A stretch of 63,763 nucleotides of DNA, counting the filler, from Folioceros fuciformis (lineage: Eukaryota): the NCBI GenBank assembly GCA_049999805.1. It is 5 parts of 5 records of this genome, joined end to end, with 100 filler letters (N's around TTAATTAATTAA, not from the genome) between each part and the next. Parts side by side here need not be neighbours in the genome. Positions count along the whole stretch, not along the records: positions 22,326 to 45,093 come from JBNGIO010006164.1; 4 more parts are not named here. The stretch is one strand, 5' to 3'. Numbering within the stretch: position 1 is the stretch's first letter; each line of letters opens with the position of its first letter. Below the pieces are notes generated by a model, which was not told where the DNA came from, did no database searches, and saw only the letters and a program-made list of their open reading frames with translations. Position numbers and translations under genes: made by a program. This document shows, one piece after another, positions 2,824-60,387 of this stretch.

Positions 2824-2923
2824 NNNNNNNNNNNNNNNNNNNNNNNNNNNNNNNNNNNNNNNNNNNNTTAATTAATTAANNNNNNNNNNNNNNNNNNNNN
2901 NNNNNNNNNNNNNNNNNNNNNNN
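2824..2923. other. Artificial scaffold spacer N44-TTAATTAATTAA-N44 (same spacer at 22226-22325, 45094-45193, 60288-60387)
   Basis: An identical 12-mer giving stops in all six frames is centred in a 100-bp N run four times. Confidence 0.97.
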
Positions 2924-2931
2924 TGCTACTG

Positions 2932-4320
2932 GTGAGCAGTGACCAGGGGTCGGAGGACCCTACTGAGCTCGACGGCGACAACGTATCGTCTTCACACTCG
3001 TTGGACTCGTCTGCGTCGTCCTCATCCTCTTGCTCATCGGCTTCTTCATCCTCCTCCTCCTCCTCCTCCTCCTCCTCGTCTCCATCGCCTTCTCCAACTC
3101 CTTCCTGGCCCTCTCGTCGCGTGGAGATGGACGCGGCCGTGTGGAGCAAGCTTCCGGAGGACTTCCTAGAGAGGGTCCTGGTGCGGCTGCCGCTCGTGAC
3201 ACACCTCCGCTTCCGTTCCGTGTGCAAGCAGTGGCGGGCAACCCTATCGTCCCCGGCCTTCCTTCAGCAGCATCGCCTGGCCTCAGCGGCCTCCCCTCCG
3301 CCAATCTGTCTGTGTCAGATCGAGTCAGGGTGGCCAAGGGAGAGGGCCACGCCCGGCGCACTCCCCGCCTCCTCCCCCTCCCGGACCTTCAAGCTGGGTC
3401 TCTCCTTCCTCCCCCACCGGGTGTCCTACCCTCGCCTCCACGACCACGGCCTCATCTGCTTCCGCGCCGAGCCACACCAGGAGCCGGAGCCGGAAGCCAT
3501 GTCCATCCATGGCCAGGACCAGGGCCGCCAAGACCGGGACCAGGACGTGATGCTGCTCTGCGTGTGTAACCCGTTCACCCGGACATGGAGGGAGCTCCCG
3601 GAGTTCGCCTGCCCCCGCTCTCACCAGCTCCGGGTAGCCCTGGCCGCGGACGCCATAGCCGGGTTCCAGGTGGTGGTGTTGCACGGGGAGGTGTCGGATC
3701 AGTGTCACCTGGACCGGAACCTGGGGGGGTGGAGCATCCGGAGTTGTGTTGGCGGGGGGGAATGGAAGGTGAGCCGGGGAGATTCGCCCTGCCCGCTCCT
3801 CAACCGGAGCACCTTCGCGCTGTGCCGGGGACGGCTCTTTGTGCTCGTCTTCGGAGTGCACTTCCTGCTGTACGCGCTGGACGGGCGGCTGCTGCACAGA
3901 TTTCACGTCCACAACCCGTGCATGCACCACGCGGCGCACCGGCTGGTGGAGCACCGTGGGGAGGTGTTCCTCTGCGGCCACTACAGCCTGGTTCCCGGGA
4001 AGCACCTCACGGTGCGGATATGGCAGCTGGAGCAGCGCCGGCTCGTGTTCCAGCAGGTGGCTGCTCTGCCTGAACCGCAGGTCATGGAGCTGGTGCAGGG
4101 CTGGGACATGGCGGATGCCGATGTGGAGCTGCTCGACTGCCGCGCTGTCGGCGACTGCATCTGCCTCCACCTGGAAATCTACAACCTGGTGTCCGGAGTG
4201 GTGCGTAATTTGGTGCTCGCTTTCCACTGCCTCGCTGCGTCCTGGACCCTGTGCTCCATGGAGTACCTTCCTTACAAATCTCTCACCCTCTTCGAGCCGC
4301 GCCTCGATCTTTTCATTTGA
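2932..4320 (+). CDS. Intronless F-box protein with plant F-box-associated (kelch/beta-propeller-like) C-terminus; start uncertain (ATG at 3127, or upstream within the gap)
   Basis: WSKLPEDFLERVLVRLP...RFRSVCKQW F-box motif, followed by HGLIC and VCNPFTRTWRELP, and a C-terminal FEPRL typical of plant F-box proteins. A Ser-rich (TCC)n stretch precedes the F-box. Confidence 0.9.
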   Translation: MSSDQGSEDPTELDGDNVSSSHSLDSSASSSSSCSSASSSSSSSSSSSSSPSPSPTPSWPSRRVEMDAAVWSKLPEDFLERVLVRLPLVTHLRFRSVCKQWRATLSSPAFLQQHRLASAASPPPICLCQIESGWPRERATPGALPASSPSRTFKLGLSFLPHRVSYPRLHDHGLICFRAEPHQEPEPEAMSIHGQDQGRQDRDQDVMLLCVCNPFTRTWRELPEFACPRSHQLRVALAADAIAGFQVVVLHGEVSDQCHLDRNLGGWSIRSCVGGGEWKVSRGDSPCPLLNRSTFALCRGRLFVLVFGVHFLLYALDGRLLHRFHVHNPCMHHAAHRLVEHRGEVFLCGHYSLVPGKHLTVRIWQLEQRRLVFQQVAALPEPQVMELVQGWDMADADVELLDCRAVGDCICLHLEIYNLVSGVVRNLVLAFHCLAASWTLCSMEYLPYKSLTLFEPRLDLFI

Positions 4321-15799: not shown

Positions 15800-18439
15800 T
15801 CACACCACTCGATCTCTACCTCTCCCACCCCTGCCTCTAGCCCTATTACCTCTTGCGCAAGTGCCTCTTACGTGAGTGCCTCTCCTACTCCGCACGTCTT
15901 GCACCCCTCCATATCCCTCTTGCACAATTGAATCTTGTGCCATTGCCTCTTGCAACCTTGCGAAAAGAGGCAACAATATCATCCCCAACCCAGAGGCTGG
16001 ATCACTTAGCGATGGTACCCCTGTTGCTTGTTGGCTTACTGATTGCCTCCGTACTGTCGAGGTTTGCTCAGTTGGTTGTCGAACTAGTTTCACTTGCGTG
16101 GCTATTGGTCGTCCAAGTGCCATTGAGTCTCGCTCACTTTGTGGTCGTACCCTTGTCACTTGCTCGGCTATCGGTTGCCCCTGTGACTGTGAGGCTTGTT
16201 CAAATGGCGGTTGGGCTCGCATTGTTTGCTCAGCTATTGATTCCCTTTGTACCCTTGAGTCTATCTCACTTTGCGATCGTAGCCGTGTCGCTTGCTCAAG
16301 CACTTGTTGCCCCCATACGCTTGAGACTTGCTCGCTTAGTGGTTGTACTTGTGCCGCTTGCTCGGCTACCAGTTGCCTTCGTACCCTTGAGGCTCGGTCA
16401 CTTTCTGATGGTATTCGTGTCGCTTGCTTAACTACTGGTTGCCTCCATATGTTTGAGGCTTGCTGAGTATTTGGTGCTAATTGTGCTGCTAGCCTATTTA
16501 GTAGTTGACCTAACATCCCTGAGGTCAACTCACTTTGTAATTGATTTTGTGCCGCTTGCTTAAGTATGGATTACACCCATTCTCTAGAGGTTTGTTCTGT
16601 TGCCATTTGTACTCGTCTTTGTTGCTCCGTTGCCAGTTGTACTCGTCTTGGTCGCTCCCTTGTAGCTCATGCTGATGGTATCTTTGTCGCTTGCTCAGCT
16701 ATCGATTGCACCCATTNNNNNNNNNNTGCTCAGCTATCGATTGCACCCATTCTCCAGAGGTTCGATCTGTTGCTGTATGTACTCGTCTTTGTTGCTCCGT
16801 TGCCGGTTGTACTCGTCTTGGTCGCTCCCTTGTAGCTTGTGCTAATGGTATCTATGTCGCTTGCTCGACTGCTGGTTGCCCCCATATGTCTGAGGCTTGC
16901 TAAGTATTTGGTGCTAGTTGTGCTGCTAGCCTATTTAGTAGTTGACCTAACATCCTTGAGGTCAACTCACTTTGTAATTGATTTTGTGCCGCTTGCTCGG
17001 GTATGGATTGCACCCATTCTCTAGAGGTTCGCTCTATTGCCGTTTGTACTTGTCTTTGTTGCTCCGTTGCCGGTTGTACTCGTCTTGGTCGCTCCCTTGT
17101 AGCTTGTGCTGATGGTATCTATGTCGCTTGCTCGACTACTGGTTGCCCCCATATGTCTTAGGCTTGTTGAGTATTTGGTGCTAGTTGTGCTGCTAGCCTA
17201 TTTAGTAGTTGACCTAACATCCTTGAGGTCACCTCACTTTGTAATTGATTTTGTGCCGCTTGCTCAGGTATGGATTGCACCCATTCTCTAGAGGTTCGCT
17301 CTATTGCCTTTTGTACTCGTTTTGTTGCTCCGTTGCCAGTTGTACTCGTCTTGGTCGCTCCCTTGTAGCTCGTGCAGATGGTATCTTTGTCGCTTGCTCA
17401 AGTATGGATTGCACCCATTCTCCAGAGGTTTGCTCTGTTGCCGTTTGTACTCTTCTTTGTTGCTCCGTTGCCGGTTGTACTCGTCTTGGTCACTCCCTTG
17501 TAGCTCGTGCTGATGGTATTTGTGTCGCTTGCTCGACTACTAGTTACCCCCATATGTCTGAGGCTTGCTGAGTATTTGGTGCTAGTTGTGCTGCTAGCCT
17601 ATTTAGTAGTTGACCTAACATCCCTGAGGTCAACTCACTTTGTAATTGATTTTGTGCCGCTTGCTCAGCTATTGGTTGCACCCATTCTCCAGATGTTGGC
17701 TCTGTTGCCGTTTGTACTTGTCTTTGTTGCTCCGTTGCTAGTTGTACTCGTCTTGGTCGCTCCCTTGTAGCTCGTGCTTGTCTTCGCTCACTTGTAGCTT
17801 GTGCTTGTCTTAGTAGCTTCATTGTCAACCGTACTTGTCGTAGTCCCTCCATTGCCAACTGTACTTGTCTTGGTAGCTTTTAGTCGCTCCATTGTCAACC
17901 GTACTTGTCGTAGTCCCTCCATTGCCAACTGTACTTGTCTTGGTAGCTCTTAGTCGCTCCATTGTCAACCATACTTGTCGTAGTCCCTCCATTGCCAATT
18001 GTACTTGTCTTGGTAGCTCTTAGTTGCTCCATTGTCAACCGTACTTGTCGTAGTCCCTCCATTGCCAACTGTNNNNNNNNNNTCGTAGTCCCTCCATTGC
18101 CAACTGTACTTGTCTTGGTAGCTCCATTGTGGATTGTACGTGTCTTGGTAGCTCCATTACTGGTTGTACTTGTCTTGGTTGCTCAACTAACGATTGCGTA
18201 TGTAATCTTTCTGCTTCATTTGGATAAAAGTAACCCAGATAACCTCTGCAATTGAAGCATGTGTAATGATCGGTTTGGATCCATGGCATCAAACATGGGT
18301 TGTGGAAGACATGATCACATGCATTCACCGTGATTACTTCCTCCTCTTTTAAAATAAGATTAAAACATACACTACAATTTTTAGTCTCATCACTATTGTA
18401 CTTGTTTGATGTGACGTGTGTACCATATAGCCTATTCAT
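15800..18439 (-). pseudogene. RING-H2 E3 ligase domain followed by a long tandem-repeat tail and RGG-like end, copy B (interrupted as assembled)
   Basis: CSVC-x15-CDHVFHNPC-x11-CFNC is a C3H2C3 RING. It is followed by 33-bp (11-aa) units such as RQVQLAMEGLR, grouped into ~135 and 267-bp higher-order repeats. There is a stop at 17544 and several N gaps. Confidence 0.8.
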
Positions 18440-21400
18440 CTTTGCTTCACTTCCAACTTTGTTAAGTTTTAGAAAAACTTTTAGAAAAATTGATTTTTTT
18501 TTCTTTTGTTATAATATTTTGTACTCTATGCATATAATTAGTATCTATAATGTTTTAATGGTGTAGTATGTGAATAGAAGAAAATATTATCAATTGAGTA
18601 ATATCCTTAATACTAAATTCATCAAGGGGTACACATGTATTGATTGATATTAAGGGATAAGGGTGCATAAGTGGTAGGAGGAACTTACCTGTCTCCACTT
18701 GGTCTTCTCCTTAGAAGCTCTATGAGAGAGCACACTCTATGCTCTCATAGCATATGGCATTGAATGCTCCAAAAGCACACAGGATGTTTCTAGCTCTAGG
18801 CTAGGCCCCCTTTTTATACTAAGGTTCACATTTCTATTTCTGTAACTATCTATCTTAAGCTCAAAGCTTTTTATACTAATCCTCACATTACCCTTTTAAT
18901 AACTATCTTATGTTAAGCTTTAAGCTGTTTATACCAAGGTTAACATTTTTAGAAACTACTTTAGAAATTTTTAGAAATTACTTTTTTAGTAACTTTGTAT
19001 CTTATGGTCAAAGCTAGGTCCTACTACTACTCATACCAAGGCTGGATCCATCCATGCTTCCTATGCAAGATCCCTTACCTTATTACTGTATTGATAGATA
19101 CATATATATACTACATTTAAACGCAAGTTAACATATGTCCTTAGATATTATACCTATATAGAACATATTGATAGTGGTATTCAAGTTCATAGTATTTGTA
19201 AGCGTAATGGTAGTAAGTATGAAGAAAAAGATTCAACGAGAAAAAAGTATCGATGGTGGTAGATTAGAAGGAAGTTTGTTCATATTCTCATTAAGCATGA
19301 AAAGAAAATAGTGTAGCGATACAATTTTAATAATATGAAGAATAATCATAGAGAAAATAATTATAATAATATAATTATTGCAACATGGAGAGAGAGAAGA
19401 AAAACATCTCTTACAAGATGTTGACGAAATTGTAAGATTGCGAAGTATGCAATTGTTTTTAGATAATGGCCACATAAGGTGAGATGTCTCATGAGCCCAT
19501 GTGACACCTCACATTGTGTAACCTAAACCCTAATAACATCCACATGTTATGCATGCTAGTACTGAATTGCATTCTCACCAAAGAAAATTACAAAATGTCA
19601 TGCCTCCACGGCAACCATCCATTCTTCCTCTTCACAACTAGGATCGTACACATGGGCTGCCACATATTATACCAACATCTCCTCAAACCTTTTCCTGGCT
19701 ACAATGGCCAATGTCGTTGAGAATGGATGAATCGATGTACAAAGAGGCTGGAGCAAGATAATTACTTTGTTGTTGAAAAGAGTACCATCCCTCTTGCATG
19801 TCTCACTTATCCTACAGTGATTTGTTGCAATAAAAGGTGAAGAGAGTTTTATGAACAAAAAGTTCATGAGAGGGGGGCACATGATGGACCATCGCTTATG
19901 ACAATGATATCTATCACAAGCTATAATTTTTCAAGTGCTTTCACATTGAAATCAAAGGCCTTCCTCTTGCTTAGTACATTATACTAGACGTACCAGTTCA
20001 TTACACATATGTGATGCATGTATAGAGTTTGAGCTCCCAAGCACGTGGTTATGAGATAGCAATTGGGGAAGACAACCAACCTCGCACACGAAGGTGGGTT
20101 TTAAATAGCAATTTGGTAGCCCACCACTGAGCTAGTAGACAAGCATGCCTCTTCTTCCTCAAAACCTTCCCCTTAGTGAGAATATTCGCAAGCGGTCTAA
20201 GTTGTAAGTACTCCAGTTTGCTAGCAAACGGAGATGCCTAGAGTCAGCTAATGGTGAAGATTTAGCTAATGGTGTCCGTAGAGATGATGATGTAGTCCTC
20301 CCCTTGGCCCATGAAGCCTATTTGCTGTGTAACCTTGTACCACTTTCCTTTCTAAAAAAACCCTACCTAGCCTCGCTTCCGTACATGATGTTACTAACCA
20401 CTCATACTGACGGGTGAGTCATTAAGCCCCCCCTTGGGAAACTTACCTTTGTCATACTCGCAACCTACACCCTTACGTTGGTGTCCTCCATCTTCACCTC
20501 CAAATTCTTGTTGCAGGATTTAAGAAGGTTTCATTTGTCTTGGGCAACTAGACTTCTTGTCAACACCAAAAATAAGCGTCGGAGCAGTCCTCCGGTGGTC
20601 CGTTGGACTCATTACCGGAGTGGGTGGGATATTTGCTTTTTTAGGTAATAAAAGGTTATTTCGGTAAACCCAAGTAGAAGACATTCTGGACCTTGGGGGG
20701 TGGGGGGGGGCACTCGGCGAGCGGACTGACATAGACCAGAATCCGTTTGGATCTTGCGTACTTGTTATCATGTTGAGGAGCGGGCGTAACTGTTTCCACA
20801 CAGGTGCAGGCATACTAGCGATGGCTAGCGTAAACTTTTACGCTAGCATATGCCACCCTTTACGCTCCAACGCCTTCGCTCTCCCTCCCACCACTCCGTC
20901 TGAGCCTCATTTCAACACACTATATCTCATCCGTCTTCTCGCTTCCCTTACCTCCTCTATCTTCCGAGACATCAAACTAACCTATGGTTGCTATGTCGCA
21001 CTTTTGGTTGCGCACTCCTCCAACTCTATCTCCTCCCTCAAAGTTTTTTTCTTATTCCTCATGGTGCTAGGGCAATTCCTTGAAGTAGGTAACGTTTGGC
21101 AGATCAATGAAGATCAAATCCAGAAGCGGGCCTACCTGAATTAATCACCTTGGATAGCCACGGCAGGTGACATGATAAAGCAGTGGTGGCTAGGGATCTT
21201 CCAGTTTCCTTGGGGCATCCAATCTAAGGCGGTAGTTGTAGAATTTGCCATAATGCTATGGCGTTGAATGTGGGGCAAACTGGAGTCTTCTAAGATCCGG
21301 GACAACCCCACCCTTTAGACCACCTAGATGATGAGGGAGGTCTACTAATGGCTGGCTACGTAGTAGGGAGGACTCTACCTCAACTCCCAACGGAATAAGG

Positions 21401-24907: not shown

Positions 24908-25676
24908 TGTGGACTGTATCTAACCATTGAAGGCTGTCTTTCCCAAAAAGCCATTCCAGAGGTGACGGTAAGAGAAAAGGAAATTAGTCGTGAAGTATCG
25001 CATCGCATTGTACAGTTTCTTAAAAAGCATATCTGCACTAAAACGAATTTATGCTGGCTAGGTTTGAGGAGCACAAAGCAAGTTGAAGATCAAAGAAGGG
25101 TTTGAATGTTAATTGCTGCAAACCGCGCGTGAGGGGCACGGTAGGCGCGATGGGGGTATGGCCGCGATACTGGATGGCATGGGGAGGGCGCAACGTTACT
25201 CTGTCTGTGTCATTAGCTCATGCCCTTCAACTGCCTTCTTTGCTTGCCAGCCGATCGATATCTTCAACCGCGTTCTTTGCTTGCCAGCCGATCGATAGCT
25301 TCAGCTCCGCTCTTTGCTTGCCGCGTGATCCACACTCTAAACCCGACTCCATCCTTGGTTTGCCATCGAACATGCCGAGCCTGTTCAGGACTCACAGCTT
25401 CCCTCGGAGGAGGAGAATTCCCATTCCCTCGTGCACTGCAGCCTGTCAATGTAACCCAGGCGTTGCCCACCTCGCGAAACTCAATGCTGTCATCTTTCAT
25501 TGTTCAAGTATTTTGGGGGAAAGGGTTCTTGTTCAAGTTACACTCGTCAAGCTGTTCTTCTCCCACGATCTTCCACATGCGGCTACTGTTACAACTGTGG
25601 ACAGCGCAGCGTGGGAAAGTTCTGACAGCGTGAGGACTCATTCACAGAAGGCTGACAACTCAGGCGACAATGGCTT

Positions 25677-28249
25677 CTATCTCAAGAAGTGCTCCAAGTC
25701 CCGTCGCATAGCCTGTAACCATGAGAAAGTGGGCATCAACAGCCCGTCGAAAGAAAACATTTGGCATAAAATCTGACAGTGTCAAGAGGGAGGGGGGTAG
25801 TTCCGCGGACTCACCTCGAACTTCTGTTTGTCGGCGTGATGCTGGGTTTCCAGCATCTCCAGTTCAGACGGAATGTGGGTGTATCCGTCAGCTTCGTCAT
25901 GTCCTTCACAGGTAGCTAGCTTCTTGATCTTCGGTTTCGGAATTCTCATTGCAAACTCCTTTGCCTGCCACATACAAGGCGAATGCCCGGAAATTGGCAT
26001 ACTAGCTACTGCCACGTTTGACCCACTTCAATGCGAAAAGTGAACAAAAAATACCTTGGCACGACTTGAAAGCAGTTTATTTGCCTTCGGCTTCTTCGGC
26101 TCAAAATCCTGCTTTGGTCAGCAAATGCAAGGCGTCAGCCGCGTAATCAAAGTTGTTTGGCATTAATCAAAAGTGAGCTTCAGAGTGCGTCAATGGCCTT
26201 TGATGAGTTTGCTGCCTGAACGGAGCGTGCAAACTGCTTGACCTTCTGATATACCTCCTTCTGCAGAAACTATATGTTCAGCACACAGCACGCCGGTAAT
26301 CTACAACTGAACATGCAGAGGCAATGCTGTCCAGCTGACCTGCAATGATAGCTCCACTGTGTTCTTCGGACCGAGACCACCAAGATGAACATGCCCCGTC
26401 ATATTCTGTTGTTTTCTCCAGTCTGAGATGGTGTATGACCGGAACTGTCTCTGCAAAGCACTCCGGAAAAAACAAAGCATTAGCAGATAGCAGAGCAAGC
26501 TGGACAGACAGGGGCCATTAGGTACAGGTTCGAGAAGCAAACCTGGCGATTTGGACCACGGAATGCAAGACCTTCATGCTTGTTGGCTTCTTCCCTCCAA
26601 CGCAGTCCTTTGAGTTCCACTACTCTAGGATTTAAGTTGTCTTTTATCGACTTCTTTATCCGTTTGTTCTCTTTCAACCTCGCCCTCTCAACAGCACTAA
26701 GTACCACTGCTTTCTTGGGTGACTCCCTAAGGTTAACCTTATTTCTCAAAAGCGACAGGTTGTTTTCGTCCCGACATGACATAACCTTTGGTTCATGCCC
26801 ATCAGCAACATTGGAAGGATAGACGACATTCTCTCTCCGATGCTGATCATGGACTATGATTGAAGAATGATTGACGTCAGAGCTTTGAGGGCAAATTACT
26901 GAGTCTCTGTAATGCACAAGATTGTCAGCACTTAAGACTGGATTGGAGTCTGAGTATCCTGAACTTGATCTTGATTGGGGCAAGTCATAACATGTATCAC
27001 GAGGATCTTGAGCTCTGTCCTGTCTATATGCGCCTGTTCTGATAATACTCTGTCCGTGATATCTTCTCCTCTCATCATCCTCTTCTCTTAGTTTCTCAGA
27101 ACTTCTGAAGTCGTGGTCTCCCTCGTAGTGGTCATAATGGTCCCCGTAACCATTATCATAGTATCCCTGATTGACGCAACAATTTTCAGTCTGCTGCCTG
27201 GTACAGTTGTCAACCTTACATGCTGGTGGTTCTTCTGCAGAATCAGGAAGTCCTAACCACAGATCTTGAGCATTGCCATCAATTCGGATTGGAGTGCATC
27301 TTTGACAAACACTTCATCCCATCGTTAGCATGAACGAACCACTAGACCTCATGCATCACAGTCTTCAACAATACTAGAGGACGTTAAAGAACATCTCCCT
27401 AATGGCATTCTGTCACTAACATTGACAGTTCATCGTTCTCACAACAATATTCAGCAGAAGAGAGGATGTGACCCAGGTTTCACACCCACACAATCCATCG
27501 GTGTAAGCCTAAAACGTGAAGGTCAAAAATCACTTTACGTGGCTAGCTGACAAGCAGACACAATTGCTCACATGCCGCCAGGAAAACAGCCACAAATTTT
27601 TCTACCAAAAAGAGCAGTCAGGCATCTCACCGTTGAACGACACAGGAAAACCAAAAAGAAGCCAAACCGAGACGCAATAGTGGCCCACAACCATTCCAGG
27701 AATGTCCTACCTCTTATGTGTCAGAAATCCGTACATGCGGTCAAGCAGCGGACCAGCTCCCTCATTTGAATCGCAATTAATGATATTCTCAATCTCCTCT
27801 TTCAACATATGAAAGTTCTTCTTCTGCAGGCGAGGGCATGGGGCAGAGCATGTGAGATGCGGCAAGCCCGGTCGACGTCCCCCTGTTCGTTAAAGCAGTG
27901 GCAGCCATAGCCAGAATTGCCCATCTTGCCTTGAAGAACTTCTCAAGCTGGGACCAGTTGTTTCTCTTCTTCGCTATTCCGGTCCCGGTGTCAAAGGAGT
28001 GCATCTGTATGCTGCTTGGGAAGTAGCGAGAAAAAATCTCTGCCACCAGGAACCCATTGGAAAAATCTCTGCGCATTCCGTGATTCCCAGCATGAATTCC
28101 ATCCAGAGTTGCGGCTTCATTCTGGGGTCACAAAAATCCCCAACTTGTTCAAACCTGCGTTACCTCCTGAGATTGCGAATCGGGAAGGACAAATTCAAGG
28201 CTACTAGCCACTGCAGCACATCCCTGCGAACACCCGGCATCCCGCCCAT
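25677..28249 (-). CDS. Ciliary protein: N-terminal SPATA4/SPEF1-type CH domain plus C-terminal JHY-like domain; ~9 exons
   Basis: Exons 1-2 give [62 protein letters not shown]. 3' exons give [30 protein letters not shown] and [23 protein letters not shown]. Splice phases are compatible; the model needs GC-AG donors. Confidence 0.75.
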
Positions 28250-29149
28250 TGCGACCTTCGCCTGAAGCAGAAGACGTTACATGTCTCTCGCCGGTTCCTC
28301 CGCCCTTGACGTGGAGCCGTTTTAGGATTAGAGCTCGTCAAACATTTTAGGGCGAGCATGGGTTCTCTCAGACTTCAGTTTTACACTCAAGGGAGATCAC
28401 TGGCCCTCGCGTCACGGGAAACCCTTGGCGGGTGGTGTCATCGAAGGACAAGGTGCATTTGCTGGACGCAGTGCACCCGTCCCATCGTGCTATGGGTCTG
28501 GGGATGTGGAATGTTGGTCCTCAAAGTATGTCCATCCGCAGATCTTTGATGTGGATGGTACCAAAATCTCGACCTACTCCCTAGACAGGACGAGGCACGT
28601 GTGATGCACTACCTGGTTTGCAGTCCCGGACCAGATTCAGGACTACAAGATGAGAGCTCTTGCAGCAGGTGGGAGCACATGGCTTTCGGCATGGTTGCTA
28701 TCATCCGGTACTTGTCTCATGCCAATTTCCTACTCCTCCAGTGAGTTGGACTAGGTAGGGGTTGAGGGTTTAAGGTCCTATGTGATCTCATCGTAGCCTG
28801 TGCAGCCGCAGAAACTGCCACACCAGCCGCAAGTTCACGTGTCGTAGTAGATCTCAGTGCAGAATGAGACCAAACTCCATTGCTAGTGTACAGGTTTTTG
28901 AAAGAAATAGGATCACCTGAAGAGTGGATTTTCCAATAGACTGCGGGCCCTCCATAAGTTCTCCAGCTCGCGCCAGTCTGGCAGTTGCAACTTCTCTGCC
29001 AGGATGTAATAGACGCACATTTCATTCTCGTGCCATTCAAAACGTCCTGGCTTTCTCCTCCAAGCACAAGCTGCTTGCATTGAGTGTCCCAAACTTGAGA
29101 GCAAACGATGTGCGTATGACACACCGAGACATCCCTTTTTACCAAGTTC

Positions 29150-29640
29150 GGACCACACTGAAGGCAAGTGAACATATCCTATGTTCCGAAGTCCGGAACA
29201 ATTAAGAGGCGTGAATATATTCCTTCTCCCGAATTTCGGAACAACGAAGAGAAGTGACCATATCCTTTGTTGCCAAGTCCGGAACAATGAAGAGAAGTGA
29301 ACATATCCTTTGTTGCCAAGTCCGCAACAATGAAGAGAAGTGAACATATCCTTTGTTGCCAAGTGCGGAACAATGAAGAGAAGTGACCATGTGCTTTGAT
29401 CACAAGTCCGGAGCACTGAACAGAAATGACCACGTGCTTCGATCCCAAATCTAGGATACTTATGGACTAGGGATCATGTTCTTCGATCCCAAATCTGGGA
29501 TACTTATGGACTAGGGATCATGTGCTTCGATCCCAAATCTGGGATACTTATGGACTAGGGACCATGTGCTTTGGTCCCAAGTCCACAACACCGAAGCCAA
29601 GTGACCATATCTTTTGCCAAGTCCGGAACGCTGAAAAGAG
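29150..29640. repeat. Compound minisatellite: 43-bp unit, then a 44-bp unit, then the 43-bp type again
   Basis: GAACATATCCTTTGTTGCCAAGT at 29299 and 29342; GATCCCAAATCT(A/G)GGATACTTATGGACTAGG at 29441, 29485 and 29529. Confidence 0.92.
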
Positions 29641-32122: not shown

Positions 32123-33114
32123 AGCTACTTAATTTCAACCATTGTCTTACTTAACCTGAGATTTAGGATCAGATTTGTCATCTAGGTTTTCGTAGGTATA
32201 AAATTAAAATTATTTTTTAATTAGAGATTTGTGAGTAGTTGTTCATCGACCGCAATTCGCAGAAGGAAGCTAATTGTAATTTATACACGAGAACTAAGAA
32301 GATAAAAAAGATATGCAATAGTGAATAAGATATGGATAAATTAAAGATTTTATTATATAATATAATATAATCTATGTTTCACATGGGGAAGAAAATAACC
32401 CTAGCTGGCTATCTGAACCTTAAAGTCTATTGGAAGATTGCCATCCCTGAAATCTTTGGGGCTATATAGATAAGGAGTTTTCAAGGTTTATTAAAGTGTA
32501 TCCATTGCTTTTGCTTTGTAAAGAGCATTGGCTAATGCGGTTTTTGGAACAATAACAAGTGTAGGTCTAGTCTTGAGAACAATACTAATTGAAGGTCAAG
32601 CCTAAGTGAAGGTCAAGCAGCTTCTTCAACACTAGAAGTAGATAGGTTTTTCTGCATTCTGGCATTTGGGGAGCAATAAATAGTTTTGAGCATTATGTTT
32701 AAAGAACCTAGTACCCTTTTGGGCAAGTTTCAACTTCCTAGGTCCTTAAGGGAGCAGAGAGGAATGCATCGGCCAAGATTCACAAATACACCCTTCTACA
32801 AGCTACGCATATTTTTATCCCCTTTGCCACTCAGTGGATCCACAGGGCAATGCATATTTTTATCCCCTTTGCCACTCAGTGGATCCACAGGGCAATGCAC
32901 AGGGCATTTTCTAAGTTATTGAAGACTTGAGCCAAGGCAGTTTTATAACAAGAAAAATGGGCTTGGTCTTCCTCTTTCCTTTGTATTGTAGCGTTCTTTC
33001 GGGCTCTTTCGGTAGAGGGAATTCTATTGCACTGCACCTAGCATTGGGTAATATTATGTGCAAAACAATGACAATGGTAGGCAACGTTAACGAATCTGTA
33101 GGCAACATTAACGA

Positions 33115-33560
33115 ATCTAGTGGTAGATAGGCCTTTCCTCCTTCAGAGGACCCTGATATCTTAGTGGTCGATAGGCCTCTCCTCTTCAGGACCATGATAT
33201 CTTAGTGGTAGATAGGCCTTTCCTCCTTCAGGACCATGATATCTTAGTGGTAGATAGGCCTCTCCTCCTCCAGGACCATGATATCTTAGTGGTAGATAAG
33301 CCTTTCCTCCTTCAGGACCATGATATCTTAATGGTATAGGGTCCTTTCCTCCTTCAAGACCATGATATCTTACTGGTAGATAGGCCTTTCCTCGTTCAGG
33401 ACCATGATATCTTAGTGGTAGATAGGCCTTTCCTCCTTCAAGACCATGATATCTTAGTGGTAGATAGGCCTTTNNNNNNNNNNCCTTTCCTCCTTCAAGA
33501 CCATGATATCTTAGTGGTAGATAGGCCTTTTCTCCTTAAGACTGTGATATCTTAGGTGCT
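33115..33560. repeat. Minisatellite, 42-bp unit, ~10 copies
   Basis: CCATGATATCTTAGTGGTAGATAGGCCTTTCCTCCTTCAGGA-type unit at 33192, 33234, 33276, 33318 and onward. Confidence 0.95.
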
Positions 33561-38299: not shown

Positions 38300-38523
38300 G
38301 CTTGAGCTTTGAAGACAGCAATCTTCAGAGGCTCAATTGTACATGAGACAACCCCCGACACTGCAGCAGTTGTTTTTAGCTTCATTGTTACCCGTTTAGA
38401 CGTTTAGGCAACATTCTCGGTAATGTTTATCATCTCATTCTTTCTATGCTCAGAGTTTATATGCTCCTGTATAAGTTAGTAGCTAGCCTAAGGGTTTAAG
38501 CGTTGCCCGCATTCCAGGCAGCC

Positions 38524-40116
38524 ATGGCGCTCCTAGCTGCAGCTTCGCGAACGGTGGCCTCGGGGGCTCTACGTGCTGCCTTCTTCGAGCAGCAAGGTAG
38601 CAGCTGCTCCAGCAGCAGCAGTAGCTTCGGCGGCGGCGGCTGCAGCTGCAACACGGCGGCGTGGGACAGGACGCGGTGGAGGCGGGCTTGCAGCGTGTCG
38701 CCCGCTGTGCTTTCTCCCCTGGATGTCTCCGCTCGCAGGAAGGCAGCCTTCCCGCTGCGCGACATCCTGGAGGCGCAGCAGTTTGATCGGGCGCTGATGG
38801 AGGAAATATTCGAGGTAGCTCAGGCAATGGAGGACGTGGACAAATTCTCTCCTGACGCCCAGCAACTAAAGGGTTTCCTCATGGCCACCCTGTTCTACGA
38901 ACCTTCCACTCGCACACGGCTGTCTTTCGAATCCGCCATGAAGCGCCTGGGCGGCGAGGTGCTCACCACAGAGAACGCTAGGGAATTCTCGTCCGCGGCG
39001 AAAGGAGAGACATTAGAAGGTGCGAATTCCCCCAGTATTGCCCAGTATGTAATTCTTCGTCTCTTCCTCCTGATCCTAGTGCCATACATCCCGACTTCCG
39101 CTCATGCGGCCATGGATTTCGCCTCGGCGCTCTTAATCGACTGCTTGTCGCGTTTCACAGACACCATCAGGACCGTTGAAGGATATGCGGACATCATAGT
39201 TCTGCGGCACTTCGAGAGTGGGGCGGCGAAGCGGGCAGCCGAGGTTACTGGCATCCCGATCATCAATGCCGGGGACGGGCCAGGGCAGCATCCTACTCAG
39301 GTTGGCTTTTTCTTCGTTTGAGAATTCAGTTCAGAGGGACGTTGAGGTGAGCAGTTTGTTTTTGTTTTTGTTTTTTGTGACTTGGTCTGCAGGCTCTCCT
39401 CGACGTGTACACCATCCAGCGCGAGATTGGGCGTCTGGATGGTATCAAAGTTGGTCTGGTGGGGGATCTGGCCAATGGCCGGACTGTTCGCTCTCTCGCA
39501 TACCTGCTCGCCAAATATAAAAACGTGCGCATCTACTTCGTGGCGCCTGAGGTGGTTGAGATGAAGGTGAGACAGTCCCTTGGCTTTTATCTCTTGCCTC
39601 GCCTCGACTGCCTACGGGATATCGACTGAATTCGGGCTACGTACAGGATGACATCAAGGACTATCTCACTTCCAAAGGGATTCAGTGGGAGGAGTCGGCT
39701 GATTTGATGCAAGTGGCCTCAGAGTGCGATGTTATCTACCAAACCCGGATTCAACGGGAGCGTTTTGGGGACATTGAACTTTACAACAAGGCGAGGGGGA
39801 AGTATATCGTGAATCGGAATGTGATGGGAGTTCTGCCTAAGCATGCTGTGGTTTTGCATCCACTGCCCCGCCTGGACGAGGTGCTTGTCCTGCTTTTGTT
39901 TTGTAATTTTTTTTCTGTTACAGATAACGCGTACGCTTTTTCGTTCGCTTTTGTTCGCAAATTTTCGTTTCTACAGATGCTGCTAATGCTTTCCACTTTT
40001 CGTTCATTCAGATCACTGTCGATGTGGATTCGGATCCTAGAGCAGCATACTTCAGACAAGCCAAGAACGGACTGTTTATTCGGATGGCTTTGTTGAAACT
40101 TTTACTAGATCAATAA
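38524..40116 (+). CDS. PYRB: Aspartate carbamoyltransferase, chloroplastic, 5 exons
   Basis: [74 protein letters not shown]. Confidence 0.97.
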
Positions 40117-41885: not shown

Positions 41886-44800
41886 TCAGCCAGCATATCC
41901 AGAAGACATCATCCCGGGAAGTGACGGCGATTGGCCGTTGAGAATAAAGGCCTGCAGAAGATTCTGTGCTGCGTGAGTCTGTTCTGGTGTTCCTGAAATT
42001 TCAACGACACGGTCCGCAGTTCCCTGCCTTGGATCATGCAGCTTCACTTTCGCACCAGACAGCTGCAGGAGCAGTAATGCTGAGTTTTGGCTAATGCACA
42101 ACAATGCTTTTCTAAACCACCCCTATCATGAAGTTTTTTTCAAACACCCACCCCAGAGCAAACAATGTCTCCGCAGGACACAGTGTATACCTGACGGATA
42201 TTGGCAATGTTACTCCCTCCCTTCCCAATAACTGATCCCACAGCGGTATTTGGTATCACCACTTCAACGGTTGTACCCGCTAGATTTGTTACAAGGCCAC
42301 CAATGGATCTGCCTCCCCTGGATTTTTAAATCAGCTTTTAGCTACTGTAAAGGCTTGACACTAATATAAGTGAAGGGATAGGCAGGGCAGCTGGAAGGCT
42401 TATGGAGCATCTAATAACGAATATCTAAAAGACTGGACTGAGCTAGCATGATATCACACATGCATAAGGCACAGCATGCACACGTAGAGCATGAACAAGA
42501 GTATGAATTTAAAAAAACATACCCTCCATACCCTCCGCCACTTGACTGCATCTGATGCACAAGACCTCCACCAAATGAGGCAAGGTCGCCCAGTCCACCA
42601 CCCTTTCATTCCAAGGGAGCATCAGATAAGTTTACTCTAACCGAAATTTAAGCCGAACCATTCTTTGGACTTGACTTACTTTTACCTCCTCTTGACACAT
42701 GAGGAGCAACACAAAGCAAACAGGCAACAAACAAATACAAGTTATGGAGGCAAGAGAATTACCTGCACACCCCAAGATCCGGGAGGAGAGCCTAGACTGC
42801 CGTATCCAGACGATAACCGTCCTCCTTGTAAGCCTAATCCAGACATAGAGGAGTACATTCCCCCTGGTGATCCAGGCTCATGTCCTACTCCGTAACCTGA
42901 GGGAATATGACCACCAAGACCAAGAGCAGAAAGTGAGGACTGGTAACTACCTCCACCCCCACCTGTATCTCGCTCCAAGAAAAAATTCCTCCTCAACTTA
43001 GATGTTATTTGGACTAAAGCCTCTCGAGCAACATTCAGATCCCCAACAATCTGCAAACAGGAAACGCCAGCATAAATAAGTCCACGCAGCTAGCCCATAA
43101 AAAGTTCAAACATTTTTATTTTCTCTGCCAGTGTAGAGCAGCTGATAGAAATGACAAGCCAGTGTCCCACCTGAACCAGCTCATCTGTTTCCAACGCACA
43201 TCGAGGCAAAGCATCCTTTGGTAGAATCCGAATAGTAGCACGTGTGGCTTTCCGCATCTCCGATATTATACTGCCCCCTTTTCCCAACAAGCAACCAATC
43301 TGGGTCGTGGGGACAAGCAGCCTGGTTGTCGTTGTGCCATCCTTCTCTGCACCGAAATCTGCTGCTCTATTTTGCACCTGCAGGACAGCATCCACCGCTG
43401 GAGATACCACCTCATCTGGAGACTGTTGTAAACAAATATCCTTAGTCAGCTACCTCTTCGAACGTGCCATGATCAGCATCCGCACTAGAAAGCCCTTTGC
43501 ACAACAAGGGATGCTCCAGGAAAGGTTACCTCGTTGGCAGAAACAATAATAACCCGTTCTTCCGTGCCCGGAACGGCATCAGCAATTTTTATTCGGGCAC
43601 CTGTCTCCTCTCTAAGTTGTCTGATAATATTTCCCTTCTTGCCGATGACACTTCCGATTTTGTCGTTGGGCCACAGAATGCGAAAGATGAGCTCGTTGTC
43701 AACTGACGCCTCCTTCACTCCATGCAGAGGACCACCGCCACGGGAAGGAAGGACGGGGCCATTGGGGGACCGAAATTGCCAGCCTCCTCCACCGCCCGCT
43801 CCTAGGCCACCTAACGTGGAGAGCGATGGTCCCAGATGAAATCCCTGGCTCCCGCCATTACCTGGAGCCATGAGAGAATTCACTTGCGACAGGAAATTCC
43901 CTGAAGACAACAAGGAACCCCCCGAAAGCAGCGGGGACGGATGGGACAACATCGATGCTCCTTGAGGCCGTTCTCTTGGGGGATTCTCCTGCAGCCGAGC
44001 TGAGATGGCGTGCAAGGCCTTCTTCACAACAGCCAGGTCACCGTACACCTGCAGCGACATTCCACCTCGTAAGCAACAACAACAACAACAAATCCAGCTG
44101 CACCCTACCCCGCAAAACGAAAATAACTAATTCAAAAACAAGCTTGCAGACCTGGACAAGCTCATCACTTGGCAGAGCGCATGCGGGGAGCTGGTCCCTG
44201 GGCAAAATTCGAATCTGGGCCCCAGTCTCATGCCTCATCTGCTCGATAATTTTGCCGCCCTTCCCAAGGAGACAACCAATCTGGTTGTTAGGCACCAACA
44301 GCCTGGTAGTAAAATGATGCGCCGCATCCTCGTCCTCCACATCCTCCTCGTTGCTCTCCCCGTCCACAATCCGGTCATGCACGCGGTACAAAGCCTCCTG
44401 CGCAGGCGAGACGCCCTCTCTGTCGTCTCCATCCCTGTCCCTGCTGTCTCTGTCCCTCGGCCCCGGCTCTCGTTCCCGGTCACTGTCGTCCCTATCCCCG
44501 TCCCGAGACCTTCCATCTCTGCCCCCGTCCCTATCCTTACCTCGCTCTCGGTACCCCTTCTCAGAGCAGGATATGATAATGACTCGCTCGTCCACTCCAT
44601 GAACCGCGTCCACGATCTTGATCTTCGCTCTAGTCTCCTGCCTCAGCGACTTGATGATGCTCCCCGCCTTTCCGATCACGCTCCCGATCTTGGACCCCGG
44701 GCACAGTATCCGGAAAATAGTGTCCTCCGCCGGCGCCGCCTTAACCGGCGGGCGCTGCTGCTCCACGTAATGCATCCGCCGCTTGTGCCGCCCGTTGCGC

Positions 44801-44889
44801 TCCGGCGGCTCCCGATCGTAGTGCGGGTGCGGCCGTTTGGAGGACCCCGAGTAGACGTGGCCAGAGGAGCCGGAATACGGCGCATCCAT
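41886..44889 (-). CDS. Five-KH-domain RNA-binding protein (HEN4/RCF3-like family), multi-exon
   Basis: GxxG loops IGSVIGKAGSII, IGCLLGKGGKII, IGSVIGKKGNII, IGCLLGKGGSII, VGSVIGKGGSNI; ends VEISGTPEQTHAAQNLLQAFI. Confidence 0.93.
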
Positions 44890-45193
44890 AGCAACAAGAC
44901 TGCGAGATCCTCGGGGCCGCTAACAATCCTGCTGCTCCTGCCACTTGCTGGCCTCTCCTTCCTTCCTTCCTTCCTTTCCTGTCCGAGAAGCCCTTCCTTG
45001 CCTCGGAACCGCAGCAATTCCTTTGCCCTAACAGCCACAGGCTGCGGTCGGGTCCCAAGCTCCAACCCCAGGGGTGTATGGTCTGTCCTGGTGNNNNNNN
45101 NNNNNNNNNNNNNNNNNNNNNNNNNNNNNNNNNNNNNTTAATTAATTAANNNNNNNNNNNNNNNNNNNNNNNNNNNNNNNNNNNNNNNNNNNN

Positions 45194-47078
45194 AAGGTTC
45201 CAATACAGCGGTTGACCTATGATAGCTATGTAGCTAGGCACCGTGCCTATATGGCAAAGGTTGTGCAAGATGTGGAATCGAGGAGCTTTGAAGAAGCTAT
45301 TGGAGACACAAAGTGGGAACATGCCATGGATGAAGAAATGAATGCATTAGATCAGAATGCAACATGGGACCTAGTACAACTACTTGAAGGCAAGAAACCA
45401 ATAGGTTGCAAATGGGTGTACAAGGTCAAACACAATGCAGATGGTAGTGTCAGCAGGTACAAGGCAAGGCTTGTGGCCAAGGGATATGCCCAGACATATG
45501 GAATAGATGTTGAGGAGACGTTCAGTCCAGTTGCCAAAATGGCAACAATTCGAACTGTGATCGCACTAGCGGCATCAAAAGGTTGGGTCCTACATCATAT
45601 GGATGTGAAGAATGCGTTCTTACATGGAGAATTGCTGGAAGGAGTATACATGGACCAGCCACCAAGTTATGAGGATTTGGATCATCCAAATCATGTGTGC
45701 AAGCTAGAAAAAACGTCGTACGGACTGAAGCAAGCCCCGAGGGCTTGGCATGAGCGTCTTGCTCAGCATCTGATTCACATCGGATTCAACATGGTAGATG
45801 CGGATCATTCGTTGTATGTGTGCAGAAGTACAAAAGGACTGGTCTTTGTGATCATTTATGTGGATGATCTAATCATTGGAGGTAATCAGTTGGATCAAGT
45901 GGAGCAGATCAAGGAACTTCTGCAACAAGAGTTCTACATGATGGACCTAGGTGAACTGAAATTCTTCTTGGGCATTGAAATTATACGAACCAACACAGGC
46001 ATTTGGCTGTCACAGCGGAAGTATGCGTTGGATGTACTAACTAAGTATGGTATGGTTGAGTGCAAGCCAATCTCGATTCCTTTGGATCAAAATCTGAAGC
46101 TCAGTGCTCATGATGGTGAAGCACTTGAAGATCCAACAGTGTACAAGAAGATTGTGGGTAGCTTGATATATCTCACTCTATCTAGACCAGATTTAAACTA
46201 TACAGTGGGACTACAGAGTCAGTTTATGCAGGTGCCAAGAAAGCCGCATTTGGATGCAGTAAGGCAAACGTTGCGCTATGTGAAGGCAACTATGAATCAT
46301 GCTCTCTTTTATGCTGCAGATTCAGACATAAACTTGTGTGGGTACACAGATGCAGATTGGGTAGGCAGTGTTATGGATCGTAGATCTATAAGTGGATTCA
46401 TATTTTCACTTGGGAGTGCAGCAATAACATGGAGTAGCAAGAAGCAGCCTACAGTGGCTTTGTCTAGTACAGAAGCTGAATACAGAGCCGCAGCAATAGC
46501 AGCGTGTGAAGTGACTTGGATTTGTAAGTTACTCGGAGATTTTGGATTGCAAGTCAACGACAAGGTTGTTATCTACTGTGACAATCTTAGCAGCATACAG
46601 TTGGCGCGAAACCCAGTGTTTCATGCCAGAACGAAACACATTGAGGTACATTATCATTTTTTTCGAGAAAGGATTTTATTTGGAGCTATTGATCTTGTGT
46701 ATATCAACACAGACGAGCAGATAGCCGATATATTTACTAAGCCAATGGGAGCAGAGAAGTTGAAGAAATTCTGAGCTATGTTAGGCGTACAAATGCTATG
46801 TTGAGCTCGAGGGGGAGTGTTCAGTTATCGAGCTCTATATAAGCTAAACTCATGTGGTGTTAGTTATCCTGGTTGGGTTCATACTAAACTAGTTCTAGTT
46901 ATTAATGAACTTAGGATAGTGTAGATTATCCCATATTGAACTTGGAAGTTGTGTAGCCCTAAATGTACTACTTAAATGGAGACCTCGGACCTCCATAGGA
47001 AGACAGTGGTGATGTGTATTGTTTTTGGTTGCGACTACCAATACCACCCTCTCTTCTCTCCTCTCCTACACTTGCACA
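45194..47078 (+). mobile_element. Ty1/copia retrotransposon 3' half: RT-RNase H (45212-46774), PPT (46809-46817), 3' LTR (~46818-47078)
   Basis: YKARLVAKG, MDVKNAFLHG, IYVDD, ADIFTK; GAGGGGGAG directly followed by TGTT. The LTR end at ...GCACA is an estimate. Confidence 0.93.
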
Positions 47079-54368: not shown

Positions 54369-57300
54369 TAGTTGGAATATAAGGCAGACCACTTGGTTCT
54401 GTATTACGTTGGTTAGCCTAACTAGATATAGTTATAAGTGTATTCAGTTAACTGGCAGGTTAGTCAAAGGGCACACCCCTTCGTAAAACTGCTGCTTAAG
54501 GCCTACCTTTGTATCCACCTAATTAATTTGCTGATAGATCATTTCAATGCATCTGCTTTCGCGTTAGCAATTCTAACTTGGTATTAGAGCTACGGCTCAG
54601 ATGGCCTATGTTTATTATGCCTAGAAGATTGCTTGCCCTAGAATGTCTAGGTAGCATAGTGTCTTGGCTATGAATATGCCTATCAAAAAAAAAAAAAAAT
54701 CTTTTTAGAGAAAAGAATTAAAAAAAAACTTAATGCATGGGGTTGGTCCCCCATCTTGGTATTGATCGGAGACCAGGGTGCTTAACGCTGGCATTTTGAT
54801 AAAAGTTAGGCTACCAGCCCCCTGTCAACTTCCTACAATTACCATTTGCTTTCGTGCAGATATGAACAAACAGAAGCCTGTATGATTCTTCGAAATAAAG
54901 GGAGAGGCATTCTGCCTTTCCCCTGCAACTCGTCGCGCACGACATTCCTGCCCGATCATGCCTAGAAGACGGCGCCAGACGAATCGATCTCCCCGTCTTC
55001 TTCATGCAAGATTGCCTAGGCCAACTCGCCTTGGATCAACTCCGATTCCTGCCCATCGAATCGCACCAAGGACCTGAGCACTTGGCCGTAATCGCACCTG
55101 TGCCTGCACCTGCACACCAAGATCAAGCCCAAAATTCGATTGTCTCAACATGGTTTTTAAGAAGATGATGAAGTCCCATGGGCATCTCGGAGCCTTCTAC
55201 CACTTCCTGAGGAGCAGACAATCAATAATCCAATCCTCTCTAATCCTGTAGGATGAGGATCTGTGAGGATTTGTCCAGATTGTGGTGGATTTGCTTCTGC
55301 CCAGGTGCACGGGCAAATTGGAAAGCCAGGAGCAATTTAGCTTGATTACTGTGCAGGAGGAAGGCATTTTCTGGGGCGCACCAAAGCCATACCACCATCG
55401 CAAGCGGGCAAGGCTGCAGGCACTCAGCGAGGAGCGTGCTGCCGCCATCACGGTCGTGGTGGAGCGCTTTGCCCAGGGTGCTCACTGGTGTGCGTCCCCC
55501 GAATCGGTGCGACACCCACGAAACGACATTTTAACTCGTCGTTTCGTGGAGGTGGGTTCGTTTTATCCACGAACCAGTGTGAATGCGGCTAATTTTGGCA
55601 CAGGTTCTGAACCGGTTCCATTTTGTGCCTCTTCACACTTGTTGGCACCCCTTCATGGTGATTTTCTGGCACAGCAAGGACTTACCTCTATTTTTCCTAT
55701 GGCTTCGTCTAGAGAAGGACTCAACCTTGCACCCGTGAATATCGAGGCCGATCCTTTGCCTCCTCCTCATGTGGTTTGGCAATGCGGGTGCATCCTTACC
55801 GAAAATCCATTGAAGAAATTTTTGCTTTGTCTAGTGACTCTCTTGGTTCAATCGATCCACCAACACGGCCTGCCAGACTTCTTGCTCTCTGGCAATTAGT
55901 GGCCAACGCCAACAAAGATCTTCTCCACTTATCAACCCAAATTCAAGAATTTCAAGGGAGTGCTAGTTCTGAGAGCGTTGAGGTCACTGAGCCTCCTCCT
56001 CCTCTCCTGTAGGTCACTTGAAGCAAGGGAGGAAATAACTGTGGTGGGTGGATTCTAAAGGACGAAGGGTAATACTTTTATTACATAATCTCTTGTGATT
56101 CTTCTTTCACTCGTACTCTCAGCGTTGTGTCATGATGTATCGTCGGCTTACGCTTTGGTTTAAAATCCACAAGAGATGTCAGGCGCTTCCACCTCTGGGT
56201 CGGGGCTTCTTGGGTCTCCAAGGCCAGGATCAAGACCCCCATCACCACCCACACCCCCTCCAGGTGGGCAAACCATTAACCCACCACCTTCTGGTGGCCC
56301 AGCAGGCAACCCACCGCCTCCACCACCAGCTGGTATTCCCCCACTTCAACCTTACTTCAACATCGTAAATATCAATACTGACTTCAAGGAAAAGGATAGA
56401 TTTAACGGTACGAAGTTTGAGGTGTGGTCAACGCGCATGAAGACTGCGCTCAACACTCGGGATCTTCTCCCCATAGTCGAAGGAACCATTCCCAAGCCCT
56501 CTGCTAATCCAGCTGCCATTGATGCTTGGGTTTGTCAAGATTGACAGGCTATGTAGATGTTGATCTCTGGCCTCGACGAGGTTACCTTATATCACACGGA
56601 TGGTACGTCCACATATGAGGAACCTTGGAAGCAAATCACTGATATCTATCAATCCACTAACGTGATGACGCTGGTCACAGTATGCCTGGAATTCTATTCT
56701 TTGCGCATGGGCCCCAATGACAGCGTTGCTCAGCACGTTAGCAAGTTTCAATATTTGCGAGCCCAGCTTGCTTCTCTTGAGACAACCATTACCAAATTTG
56801 AAGCTGTTGTTCAATTATTGGCTAGCCTCCCGGCTAGCTACCATACATTTGTCTCCTCTCAAAACCAAACGGAGAGAAATGCACATCAGGCTGTGCAGTT
56901 GGGTATGGTTCCCAGCATCACTGTGTCCGAGATCGCTGGAGCACTCCTTCAAGAGGAGTCTACCAGGTTCAATATCGGGACCTCCTAACATGGAGGAGAG
57001 AGGGTCATGTTTGTCTCCAAAGGACGGCCATCGCAGCGTAAGAATTCTTATAATAATACCAATCGAAGGAATAACTCCACATGTCCTCCTAAGCCTGCTT
57101 CCTCAACACCCTCTTCGTCGAAGACACCAAAGCAGCAAGGTACGTGCAATTAGTGCCAGTCCCTAGGTCGTTGGGAAAGGGAGTGCGGGAAGAAGCAAGC
57201 TGGTGAGGCCAAACGCGAACCTCGCACGGAAAATACCGTGGCGGTTTCGACTAAGGCCAAGAACCATTCTAACCCTAGCGTTGCTCTCACTGTTTGTCTT

Positions 57301-60287: not shown

Positions 60288-60387
60288 NNNNNNNNNNNNN
60301 NNNNNNNNNNNNNNNNNNNNNNNNNNNNNNNTTAATTAATTAANNNNNNNNNNNNNNNNNNNNNNNNNNNNNNNNNNNNNNNNNNNN

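Follow-up and report, generated by a model that had tools for sequence, protein, structure and literature searches.

Gene structure and splicing

The window analyzed here is a 63,763-nucleotide stretch of DNA from Folioceros fuciformis (assembly GCA_049999805.1), made of five joined parts. One of these parts (JBNGIO010006164.1, positions 22,326 to 45,093) carries a minus-strand gene of nine exons that joins an N-terminal CH_2 domain to a C-terminal JHY domain. The gene runs from an ATG at 28249 to a stop codon at 25677 within one N-free stretch, and the spliced exons form a single open frame of 502 amino acids (aa), in which a disordered linker separates the two domains (Table 1). A first-pass annotation had proposed a fusion of SPATA4-type CH and JHY modules from short motifs. 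These motifs do sit on the minus strand where they had been placed, and the proposal of one gene for both domains is borne out by splice joints at all eight introns, by a CH_2 match with an E-value of 8e-17, and by a score of 94.6 bits for the spliced tail on a JHY profile.

Splicing was assessed with contigs of four sequencing runs (among 21 listed), several of which come from relatives. None of the listed runs is recorded as RNA; the joints fit GT-AG or GC-AG intron ends, from which we infer that the runs contain spliced RNA. In run X1, joints were observed at each of the eight introns, and 18 of its 19 aligned records are at least 99% alike. Introns 1, 4, 5, 7 and 8 are joined in all four runs, and intron 6 in three (joint 26107/26197), with a loose end in the fourth. 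Intron 3 is joined in two runs and intron 2 in one (X1, joint 27823/27930), the latter with a loose end in X5 that matches exon 3; intron 2 is retained in some X2 and X3 contigs. The phase-2 donor at 27710 and the AAG acceptor at 27300, which had been paired from the sequence, are indeed joined in X1 and X5 contigs, and the frame remains open through exon 4 to the 3' exons. Alternative acceptors for intron 3 at 27509 and 27235 were ruled out by stops in the required phase.

Two of the eight introns, 2 and 6, carry GC donors (at 27929 and 26197, respectively), a feature absent from the first-pass annotation. The intron 6 donor, GCCATT, is far off the usual GC-donor consensus, yet it is spliced in three organisms. 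One X1 contig omits exon 6 in frame. In two relatives, exon 3 is joined straight to exon 5 with a shift of frame, and these joints indicate that the CH and JHY exons share one pre-mRNA. CH-only splice products of 121-138 aa (26451-27710, 27824-27929) occur in four organisms and may be either decay substrates or the source of a short FAP178-like protein.

In exon 4, a little-conserved linker is followed by a conserved AVERAR helix, after which the LAFR motif marks the start of the JHY region. From 40 of 217 differences displayed, a tally of substitutions in relatives places 20 of the 32 listed at third codon positions, with 17 synonymous and no stops, and in the listed long contigs of relatives the exon is free of gaps except for one at the intron side. 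By this third-position bias, together with the lack of stops and of internal gaps, exon 4 is coding.

Identification of the two domains

The CH_2 domain (PF06294) is recognized on exon 2 alone with 61.5 bits, past the curated cut-off of 27. The JHY domain (PF15261) is divided over five exons, each of which is below the Pfam cut-off by itself; among the nine single-exon pieces scanned, only exon 8 gave a match, and a weak one (15.7 bits against a cut-off of 27, E-value 0.022). Plant orthologs score 43-63 bits on the same model. The first-pass annotation had suggested Pfam scans of the spliced model; on single exons, CH_2 exceeds its cut-off, while JHY does so in the orthologs and in no exon of this gene taken alone. 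When the spliced C-terminus is compared with a profile built from 52 stand-alone JHY sequences, which lack CH and were not recognized as green, its score far exceeds the best of 500 shuffles (7.1 bits) and the reversed sequence (-1.3 bits); single exons reach 17.1 (exon 5) and 31.5 bits (exon 8) on this profile. The spliced tail also aligns along its whole length with plant orthologs, with an E-value of 9e-36 to Ginkgo.

Fold evidence comes from models of orthologs. In the AlphaFold2 model of Gb_11052, which we take to be from Ginkgo by its id prefix, the CH domain (residues 11-110) has a predicted local distance difference test (pLDDT) score of ~90 and is followed by a disordered linker of low pLDDT. 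The JHY region of this model consists of separate helices and extended segments without a globule, and the Myrmecia model agrees. Both single-chain models have a predicted template modeling score of 0.39, which is uninformative on domain packing, and a complex prediction for the Ginkgo CH (1-116) and JHY (294-440) regions, run without alignments, scored 0.00 and provides evidence neither way. Among solved structures, no sequence match to the JHY domain was found, and the Foldseek matches displayed are all CH proteins.

Subfamily of the CH domain

The CH domain of the Ginkgo ortholog scores 81 bits with SPATA4 and 78 bits with FAP178, compared with 57, 55 and 51 bits for SPEF1 proteins. Foldseek searches with the Ginkgo model give the same ranking, with E-values of 1e-7 to the SPATA4 and FAP178 chains. 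By sequence and fold, the domain is of the SPATA4/FAP178 type, not the SPEF1 type, within a third, fused subgroup. Of the SPATA4/SPEF1 identity first proposed, the SPATA4 half thus holds, while SPEF1 is a different paralog. Consistent with this, the C-terminus is JHY and not the dimerizing coiled coil of SPEF1, and a separate SPEF1-type gene of at least three exons lies in an AT-rich region of the same genome (G000:C6298, 321722-322044). The genome's CH_2 loci therefore number at least two; no second SPATA4-type locus was found in it, these counts being lower bounds.

Among characterized proteins, mouse SPATA4 (PDB 9ijj) and Chlamydomonas FAP178 (PDB 7n61, 7som) belong to the same CH_2 subfamily and are the best matches in both sequence and fold, and their seam-contact arginine and histidine are kept in the fused CH domain. 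Unlike the fused gene, they have no JHY domain. They also differ at the residue two after the first conserved Trp, which is Gln in FAP178, in SPATA4 and in all 33 stand-alone sequences of a CH tree, but hydrophobic in all 23 sequences of the fused group. That tree contains 56 CH domains (21 fused, two short fragments grouping with them, and 33 stand-alone; FAP178 absent), obtained from 142 by completeness and de-duplication, and the fused sequences form one side of a branch with support 97/91. A single origin of the fusion is compatible with the CH tree, which has no reliable root. Use of the genome's own SPEF1-type sequence as outgroup placed the root within the plants, at a long branch; this rooting was discarded.

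One-to-one orthology with FAP178 and SPATA4 is contradicted in the algae, since the fused CH domain of Volvox differs widely from FAP178 and C. reinhardtii holds both FAP178 (XP_001702799) and the fused gene (XP_001699269). For these reasons, and with the fused sequences on their own side of the 97/91 branch, the fused CH domain is a paralog of FAP178 and not its ortholog. In many protists, a SPATA4-type CH domain is found in proteins of ~750-930 aa with a long C-terminal part in which no Pfam family exceeds its cut-off (P0016-P0120).

In common with the fused protein, SPEF1 (also CLAMP) has a CH_2 domain, which in SPEF1 binds seams, followed by a disordered linker and by a helical C-terminus, which in SPEF1 is dimerizing (10.1101/2025.07.31.667833, 10.1101/2024.12.02.626492). 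The second of these reports describes nine tubulin-contacting residues of SPEF1A at the seam and binding of the SPEF1 CH domain to tip seams. By our reading of the alignments, five of the nine contact residues listed for Tetrahymena SPEF1A are either kept or replaced by another basic residue in the fused CH domain, one of them being the counterpart of mouse R31, and FAP178 likewise keeps five of nine.

Distribution of the fusion

Local profiles identified both domains in 25 proteins, of which 22 could be assigned to organisms, all green (the other three are unassignable), and the same architecture occurs in more than 20 green species. Both Pfam domains exceed their cut-offs in proteins of Sphagnum, Selaginella, Ginkgo, Physcomitrium, Adiantum, Calypogeia, Marchantia, Myrmecia, Pyramimonas, Bryopsis, Volvox and Chloropicon. 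The architecture is thus present in bryophyte, fern and green algal homologs, which the first-pass annotation had proposed to check, and also in a lycophyte and Ginkgo. Individual searches contributed unequally. Among the 120 of 239 CH matches listed, seven also carry a JHY signal, all from land plants or without an organism name. Searches with JHY profiles added liverworts and one moss, and the best 150 of 624 JHY clusters include the chlorophytes Pyramimonas, Chloropicon, Bryopsis, Myrmecia, Volvox and Polytomella and a Tetraselmis cluster. A search with the full-length fused alignment added Chlamydomonas eustigma, C. euryale, Tetradesmus, Haematococcus, Sanguina and C. reinhardtii XP_001699269, an old gene model with a partial JHY match of 21.3 bits; this search returned 17 proteins, missed known members and does not bound the range. 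Folioceros is placed as a land plant in both the CH and JHY trees.

These results show that the fusion is spread across the green lineage. The first-pass annotation had tied it to plant sperm; its occurrence in Volvox, Chlamydomonas species and other chlorophytes contradicts this and also indicates that it probably originated in the green ancestor. No angiosperm or conifer name appears among the matches listed, although most of the best 150 of 624 JHY clusters lack names and no search aimed at these groups was made, so the absence from angiosperms that had been expected is compatible with the matches without being proven by them. A literature search found no description of a CH-JHY fusion or of a non-animal JHY protein (most subscription papers lay outside its coverage), and precomputed Pfam annotation of public proteins already displays both domains together. 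The architecture is new, although both ciliary families are known.

JHY outside animals

JHY domains are not confined to animals and fused green proteins. Organism names were looked up for 30 of 150 JHY matches, and the stand-alone JHY proteins so named are from Guillardia, Baffinella, Palpitomonas, Telonema, Andalucia, Ectocarpus and the cnidarian Actinostola. Of the JHY proteins scanned, 82 of 83 exceed the Pfam JHY cut-off (Actinostola was not among the 83), and the named protist proteins score 59-117 bits, Ectocarpus having the highest score. A profile built from six plant tails finds the cnidarian JHY protein with an E-value of 1.7e-13 in 1.84 billion, the closest clusters in the ESM Atlas are those of JHY, with Chordata as their commonest phylum (0.92 and 0.91), and all four JHY motif blocks lie collinearly in the C-terminal part. 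The protist stand-alone proteins have the same JHY domain as the fused ones, including the LAFS/LAFR-R lead-in, but they lack CH, and the literature search turned up no description of them. A short motif of the [RK]F..[KR]I type opens many of these proteins and is present N-terminally in 46 of 156 JHY-only proteins (the loose form occurs in a control window in 2 of 156), whereas its strict form is found in none of 26 fused proteins. This motif (P0132-P0272) is a candidate targeting or WD40-binding element.

Chlamydomonas, one of the green organisms with the fusion, is a classic waveform switcher. A 2025 study (PMC12979858) reported from BLAST searches that JHY is missing from protozoa and in its title ties JHY to fixed ciliary waveforms in animals; its main text mentions neither SPATA4 nor plants. 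The sequences of cryptophytes, Telonema, a jakobid, a brown alga and the green lineage contradict this absence and undercut the phylogenetic basis of that waveform model. The wide occurrence of JHY outside animals is the larger result at this locus, and it had been missed by the first-pass annotation. No passage on JHY was found in PMC9236146. A Pfam JHY search of the Folioceros genome gave no match and also missed the present gene as well as its controls, so it is unusable for counting JHY copies.

A predicted role at the central pair

Characterized relatives of both domains act at the central pair of motile cilia. FAP178/SPATA4 lies on the C2 seam with PF20/SPAG16 (10.1101/2022.01.23.477438, 10.64898/2026.01.30.702858, PMC11759756, 10.1101/2024.08.06.606614). 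Mouse Jhy loss results in 9+0 cilia, and the protein localizes to the central pair (PMC12979858, PMC5718522). According to the former report, mouse JHY by itself does not bind microtubules: it is recruited by SPEF1 via its C-terminal JHY domain, its N-terminus (residues 1-150) binds WDR47, it is situated at or near C2, and its loss removes distal central microtubules. In the Folioceros protein, as in mouse Jhy and human C11orf63, a long disordered region precedes a C-terminal JHY domain with the same four motif blocks. Unlike mouse JHY (774 aa, no CH, WDR47-binding N-terminus), the Folioceros protein has a CH domain at the N-terminal end, so it does not have an animal-type JHY N-terminus.

On this analogy, and with a probability of roughly 0.6, we propose that the CH domain binds at a central-pair seam, bringing the JHY tail with it and thereby stabilizing the pair. 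In the green lineage, duplication of the SPATA4/FAP178 CH domain would have supplied a copy that became fused to JHY, a far older domain, in place of the N-terminal motif that many stand-alone JHY proteins of protists have. As in FAP178, SPATA4 and SPEF1, the CH domain would sit on a central-pair microtubule seam, most likely that of C2, and the flexible linker would allow the extended helical JHY tail to reach neighboring central-pair proteins. SPEF1 is the first candidate partner for this tail, by analogy with mouse. The fusion would thus supply JHY with its own microtubule anchor, whereas mouse JHY is instead recruited by SPEF1 and WDR47, and the outcome would be a braced central pair in sperm flagella. 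The presence of a hydin-family match and a SPEF1-type gene in the genome is consistent with this proposal. The cooperation of the two modules that had been predicted from their fusion finds a counterpart in mouse, where JHY cooperates with a CH_2 protein, although that protein is SPEF1 (PMC12979858) and the extension to plants is by inference.

Several observations weigh against this proposal. At the level of the gene, no single contig of the four runs covers CH through JHY, and the intron 3 joints in X1 and X5 have short sides of 30 and 28 letters, just below the 31 letters set as the bar for a contig to bridge a joint. Splice forms that lose JHY are also present, with products of 121 aa (intron 2 retained), 129 aa (exon 4 skipped) and 138 aa (alternative acceptor). 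Among green organisms, gene models of Riccia (two), Chara and Chlorokybus have JHY without CH, perhaps because they are incomplete. The JHY tree (58 sequences) splits the green sequences, requiring three changes, and the one-group topology is found in 0 of 200 bootstrap trees, although the starred branches force only one change and the tree is unresolved. As for function, four of the nine SPEF1A contact residues are not kept, XP_001699269 is not in the examined rows of the central-apparatus candidate Table 2 of PMC6548120, and the CH protein modeled on the Chlamydomonas C2 seam is FAP178 and not the fused protein (10.1101/2022.01.23.477438).

Alternatively, the fused protein may act transiently, in central-pair assembly or at the ciliary tip, without becoming a repeating subunit of the mature structure. 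Such a role, which we regard as unlikely, would fit the tip-seam binding of the SPEF1 CH domain (10.1101/2024.12.02.626492), the enrichment of mouse JHY in nascent short cilia and the distal effect of its loss, and the modeling of another paralog, FAP178, on the mature seam. However, mouse JHY is also distributed along mature central microtubules (PMC12979858), and with no second SPATA4-type gene found in Folioceros (again a lower bound), the fused CH domain may be the sole candidate for the FAP178 site.

Less probable still is a target on non-axonemal microtubules of flagellate green cells, such as basal-body roots, the spline or the multilayered structure. Basal bodies and microtubules outside cilia also carry CH_2 proteins (10.64898/2025.12.03.689828), human SPATA4-YFP was not at cilia in RPE1 cells (PMC3689809), and the fusion is limited to green organisms among named matches. 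The characterized relatives of both domains are nonetheless central-pair proteins, and Volvox and other chlorophytes carry the fusion. To our knowledge, chlorophytes such as Volvox have no spline.

It is very improbable that the tail is only distant kin of animal JHY with another job, the central-pair role being an animal novelty as PMC12979858 would have it. Its identity to the one named animal match is 24% over 149 columns, only that single animal sequence was compared, and the Ectocarpus score suggests that the Pfam JHY model may include non-animal members; the reach of the plant-tail profile to the cnidarian protein, the Chordata-rich clusters and the collinear motif blocks nevertheless argue for true JHY. 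Finally, two adjacent genes or an annotation artifact, yielding separate CH-only and JHY products, are hardly credible. In favor of this reading, the two domains are not covered by any one contig, splice forms without JHY occur, and database models are split in Adiantum nelumboides and Riccia; against it stand the in-frame joints at every intron, the exon 3-to-5 joints, the coding linker exon and the recurrence of the architecture in more than 20 green species.

The proposed docking of the CH domain on the central-pair seam can be extended into a broader scenario, which we offer tentatively and consider possible but doubtful as a whole. JHY would be an ancient central-pair component predating the major eukaryotic split, not an animal invention for waveform, and a green CH duplicate would have replaced its N-terminal targeting motif, producing a seam protein with an anchor of its own. 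Among land plants, those with swimming sperm may retain the fused copy alone, which would fill the FAP178 site on C2 and brace the pair via SPEF1, with the CH-only splice forms possibly providing a short FAP178-like product. The gene is a candidate for central-pair stabilization in plant sperm, and the proposal is testable with Chlamydomonas XP_001699269, Marchantia MPTK1_3g13630 and the Physcomitrium ortholog, which would open the sole conserved domain of a hydrocephalus gene to algal genetics and cryo-electron tomography.

Other features of the window and genome

Elsewhere in the genome, a Hydin_ADK match (G000:C6113, 96750-96878) lies within a 3502-aa open frame; an unbroken exon of such length stands out in a genome of short-intron genes. 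Next to the fused gene, contigs of two relatives skip 122 bases from the stop codon (25557-25678) with non-canonical ends, probably reflecting a deletion or divergence in the 3' untranslated region (UTR). Just upstream of the start codon (28393-28900), a 661-base X1 contig extends past the compared stretch and may represent a long 5' UTR or a separate transcript; open frames near these positions gave no Pfam match. Four other genes noted in the window are unrelated neighbors, and several Copia-like retroelement frames were recognized by eye (Table 1).

Table 1 Exons of the CH-JHY gene and other features of the window.
Feature	Positions	Strand	Content and evidence
Exon 1	28164..28249	-	aa 1-28; ATG at 28249, CH start; joint 28068/28164 in 4/4 runs; aligns with plant orthologs
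Exon 2	27930..28068	-	aa 29-75; CH_2 core, Pfam PF06294 E 8e-17; GC-donor intron after
Exon 3	27711..27823	-	aa 76-112; CH end; phase-2 donor at 27710
Exon 4	26543..27299	-	aa 113-365; AAG acceptor; joints 27299/27711 (X1, X5) and 26450/26543 (4/4 runs)
Exon 5	26340..26450	-	aa 366-402; JHY, YT..D and LG.LGP motifs; joints in 4/4 runs
Exon 6	26198..26260	-	aa 403-423; JHY long helix; joint 26260/26340 in 4/4 runs; GC-donor intron after
Exon 7	26055..26108	-	aa 424-441; basic linker within JHY; joint 25963/26054 in 4/4 runs
Exon 8	25815..25964	-	aa 442-491; JHY motifs A.EFA..IPKPK and SELE.LE..H; Pfam JHY 15.7 bits
Exon 9	25677..25712	-	aa 492-502 and stop; C-terminal helix end, kept in land-plant orthologs; joint 25711/25814 in 4/4 runs
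F-box/KIB1-4 propeller gene	2872-4320		unrelated neighbor
RING finger gene	18035-18508		unrelated neighbor
Aspartate carbamoyltransferase gene	38500-40096		unrelated neighbor
KH-domain gene	43485-44919		unrelated neighbor
Copia-like retroelement frames	340-2871, 45146-46774, 57154-60335		by eye

The fused gene is flanked by arrays of tandem repeats, whose periods are 37-45 bases, at 29134-29580, 25225-25322 and 32807-33400.
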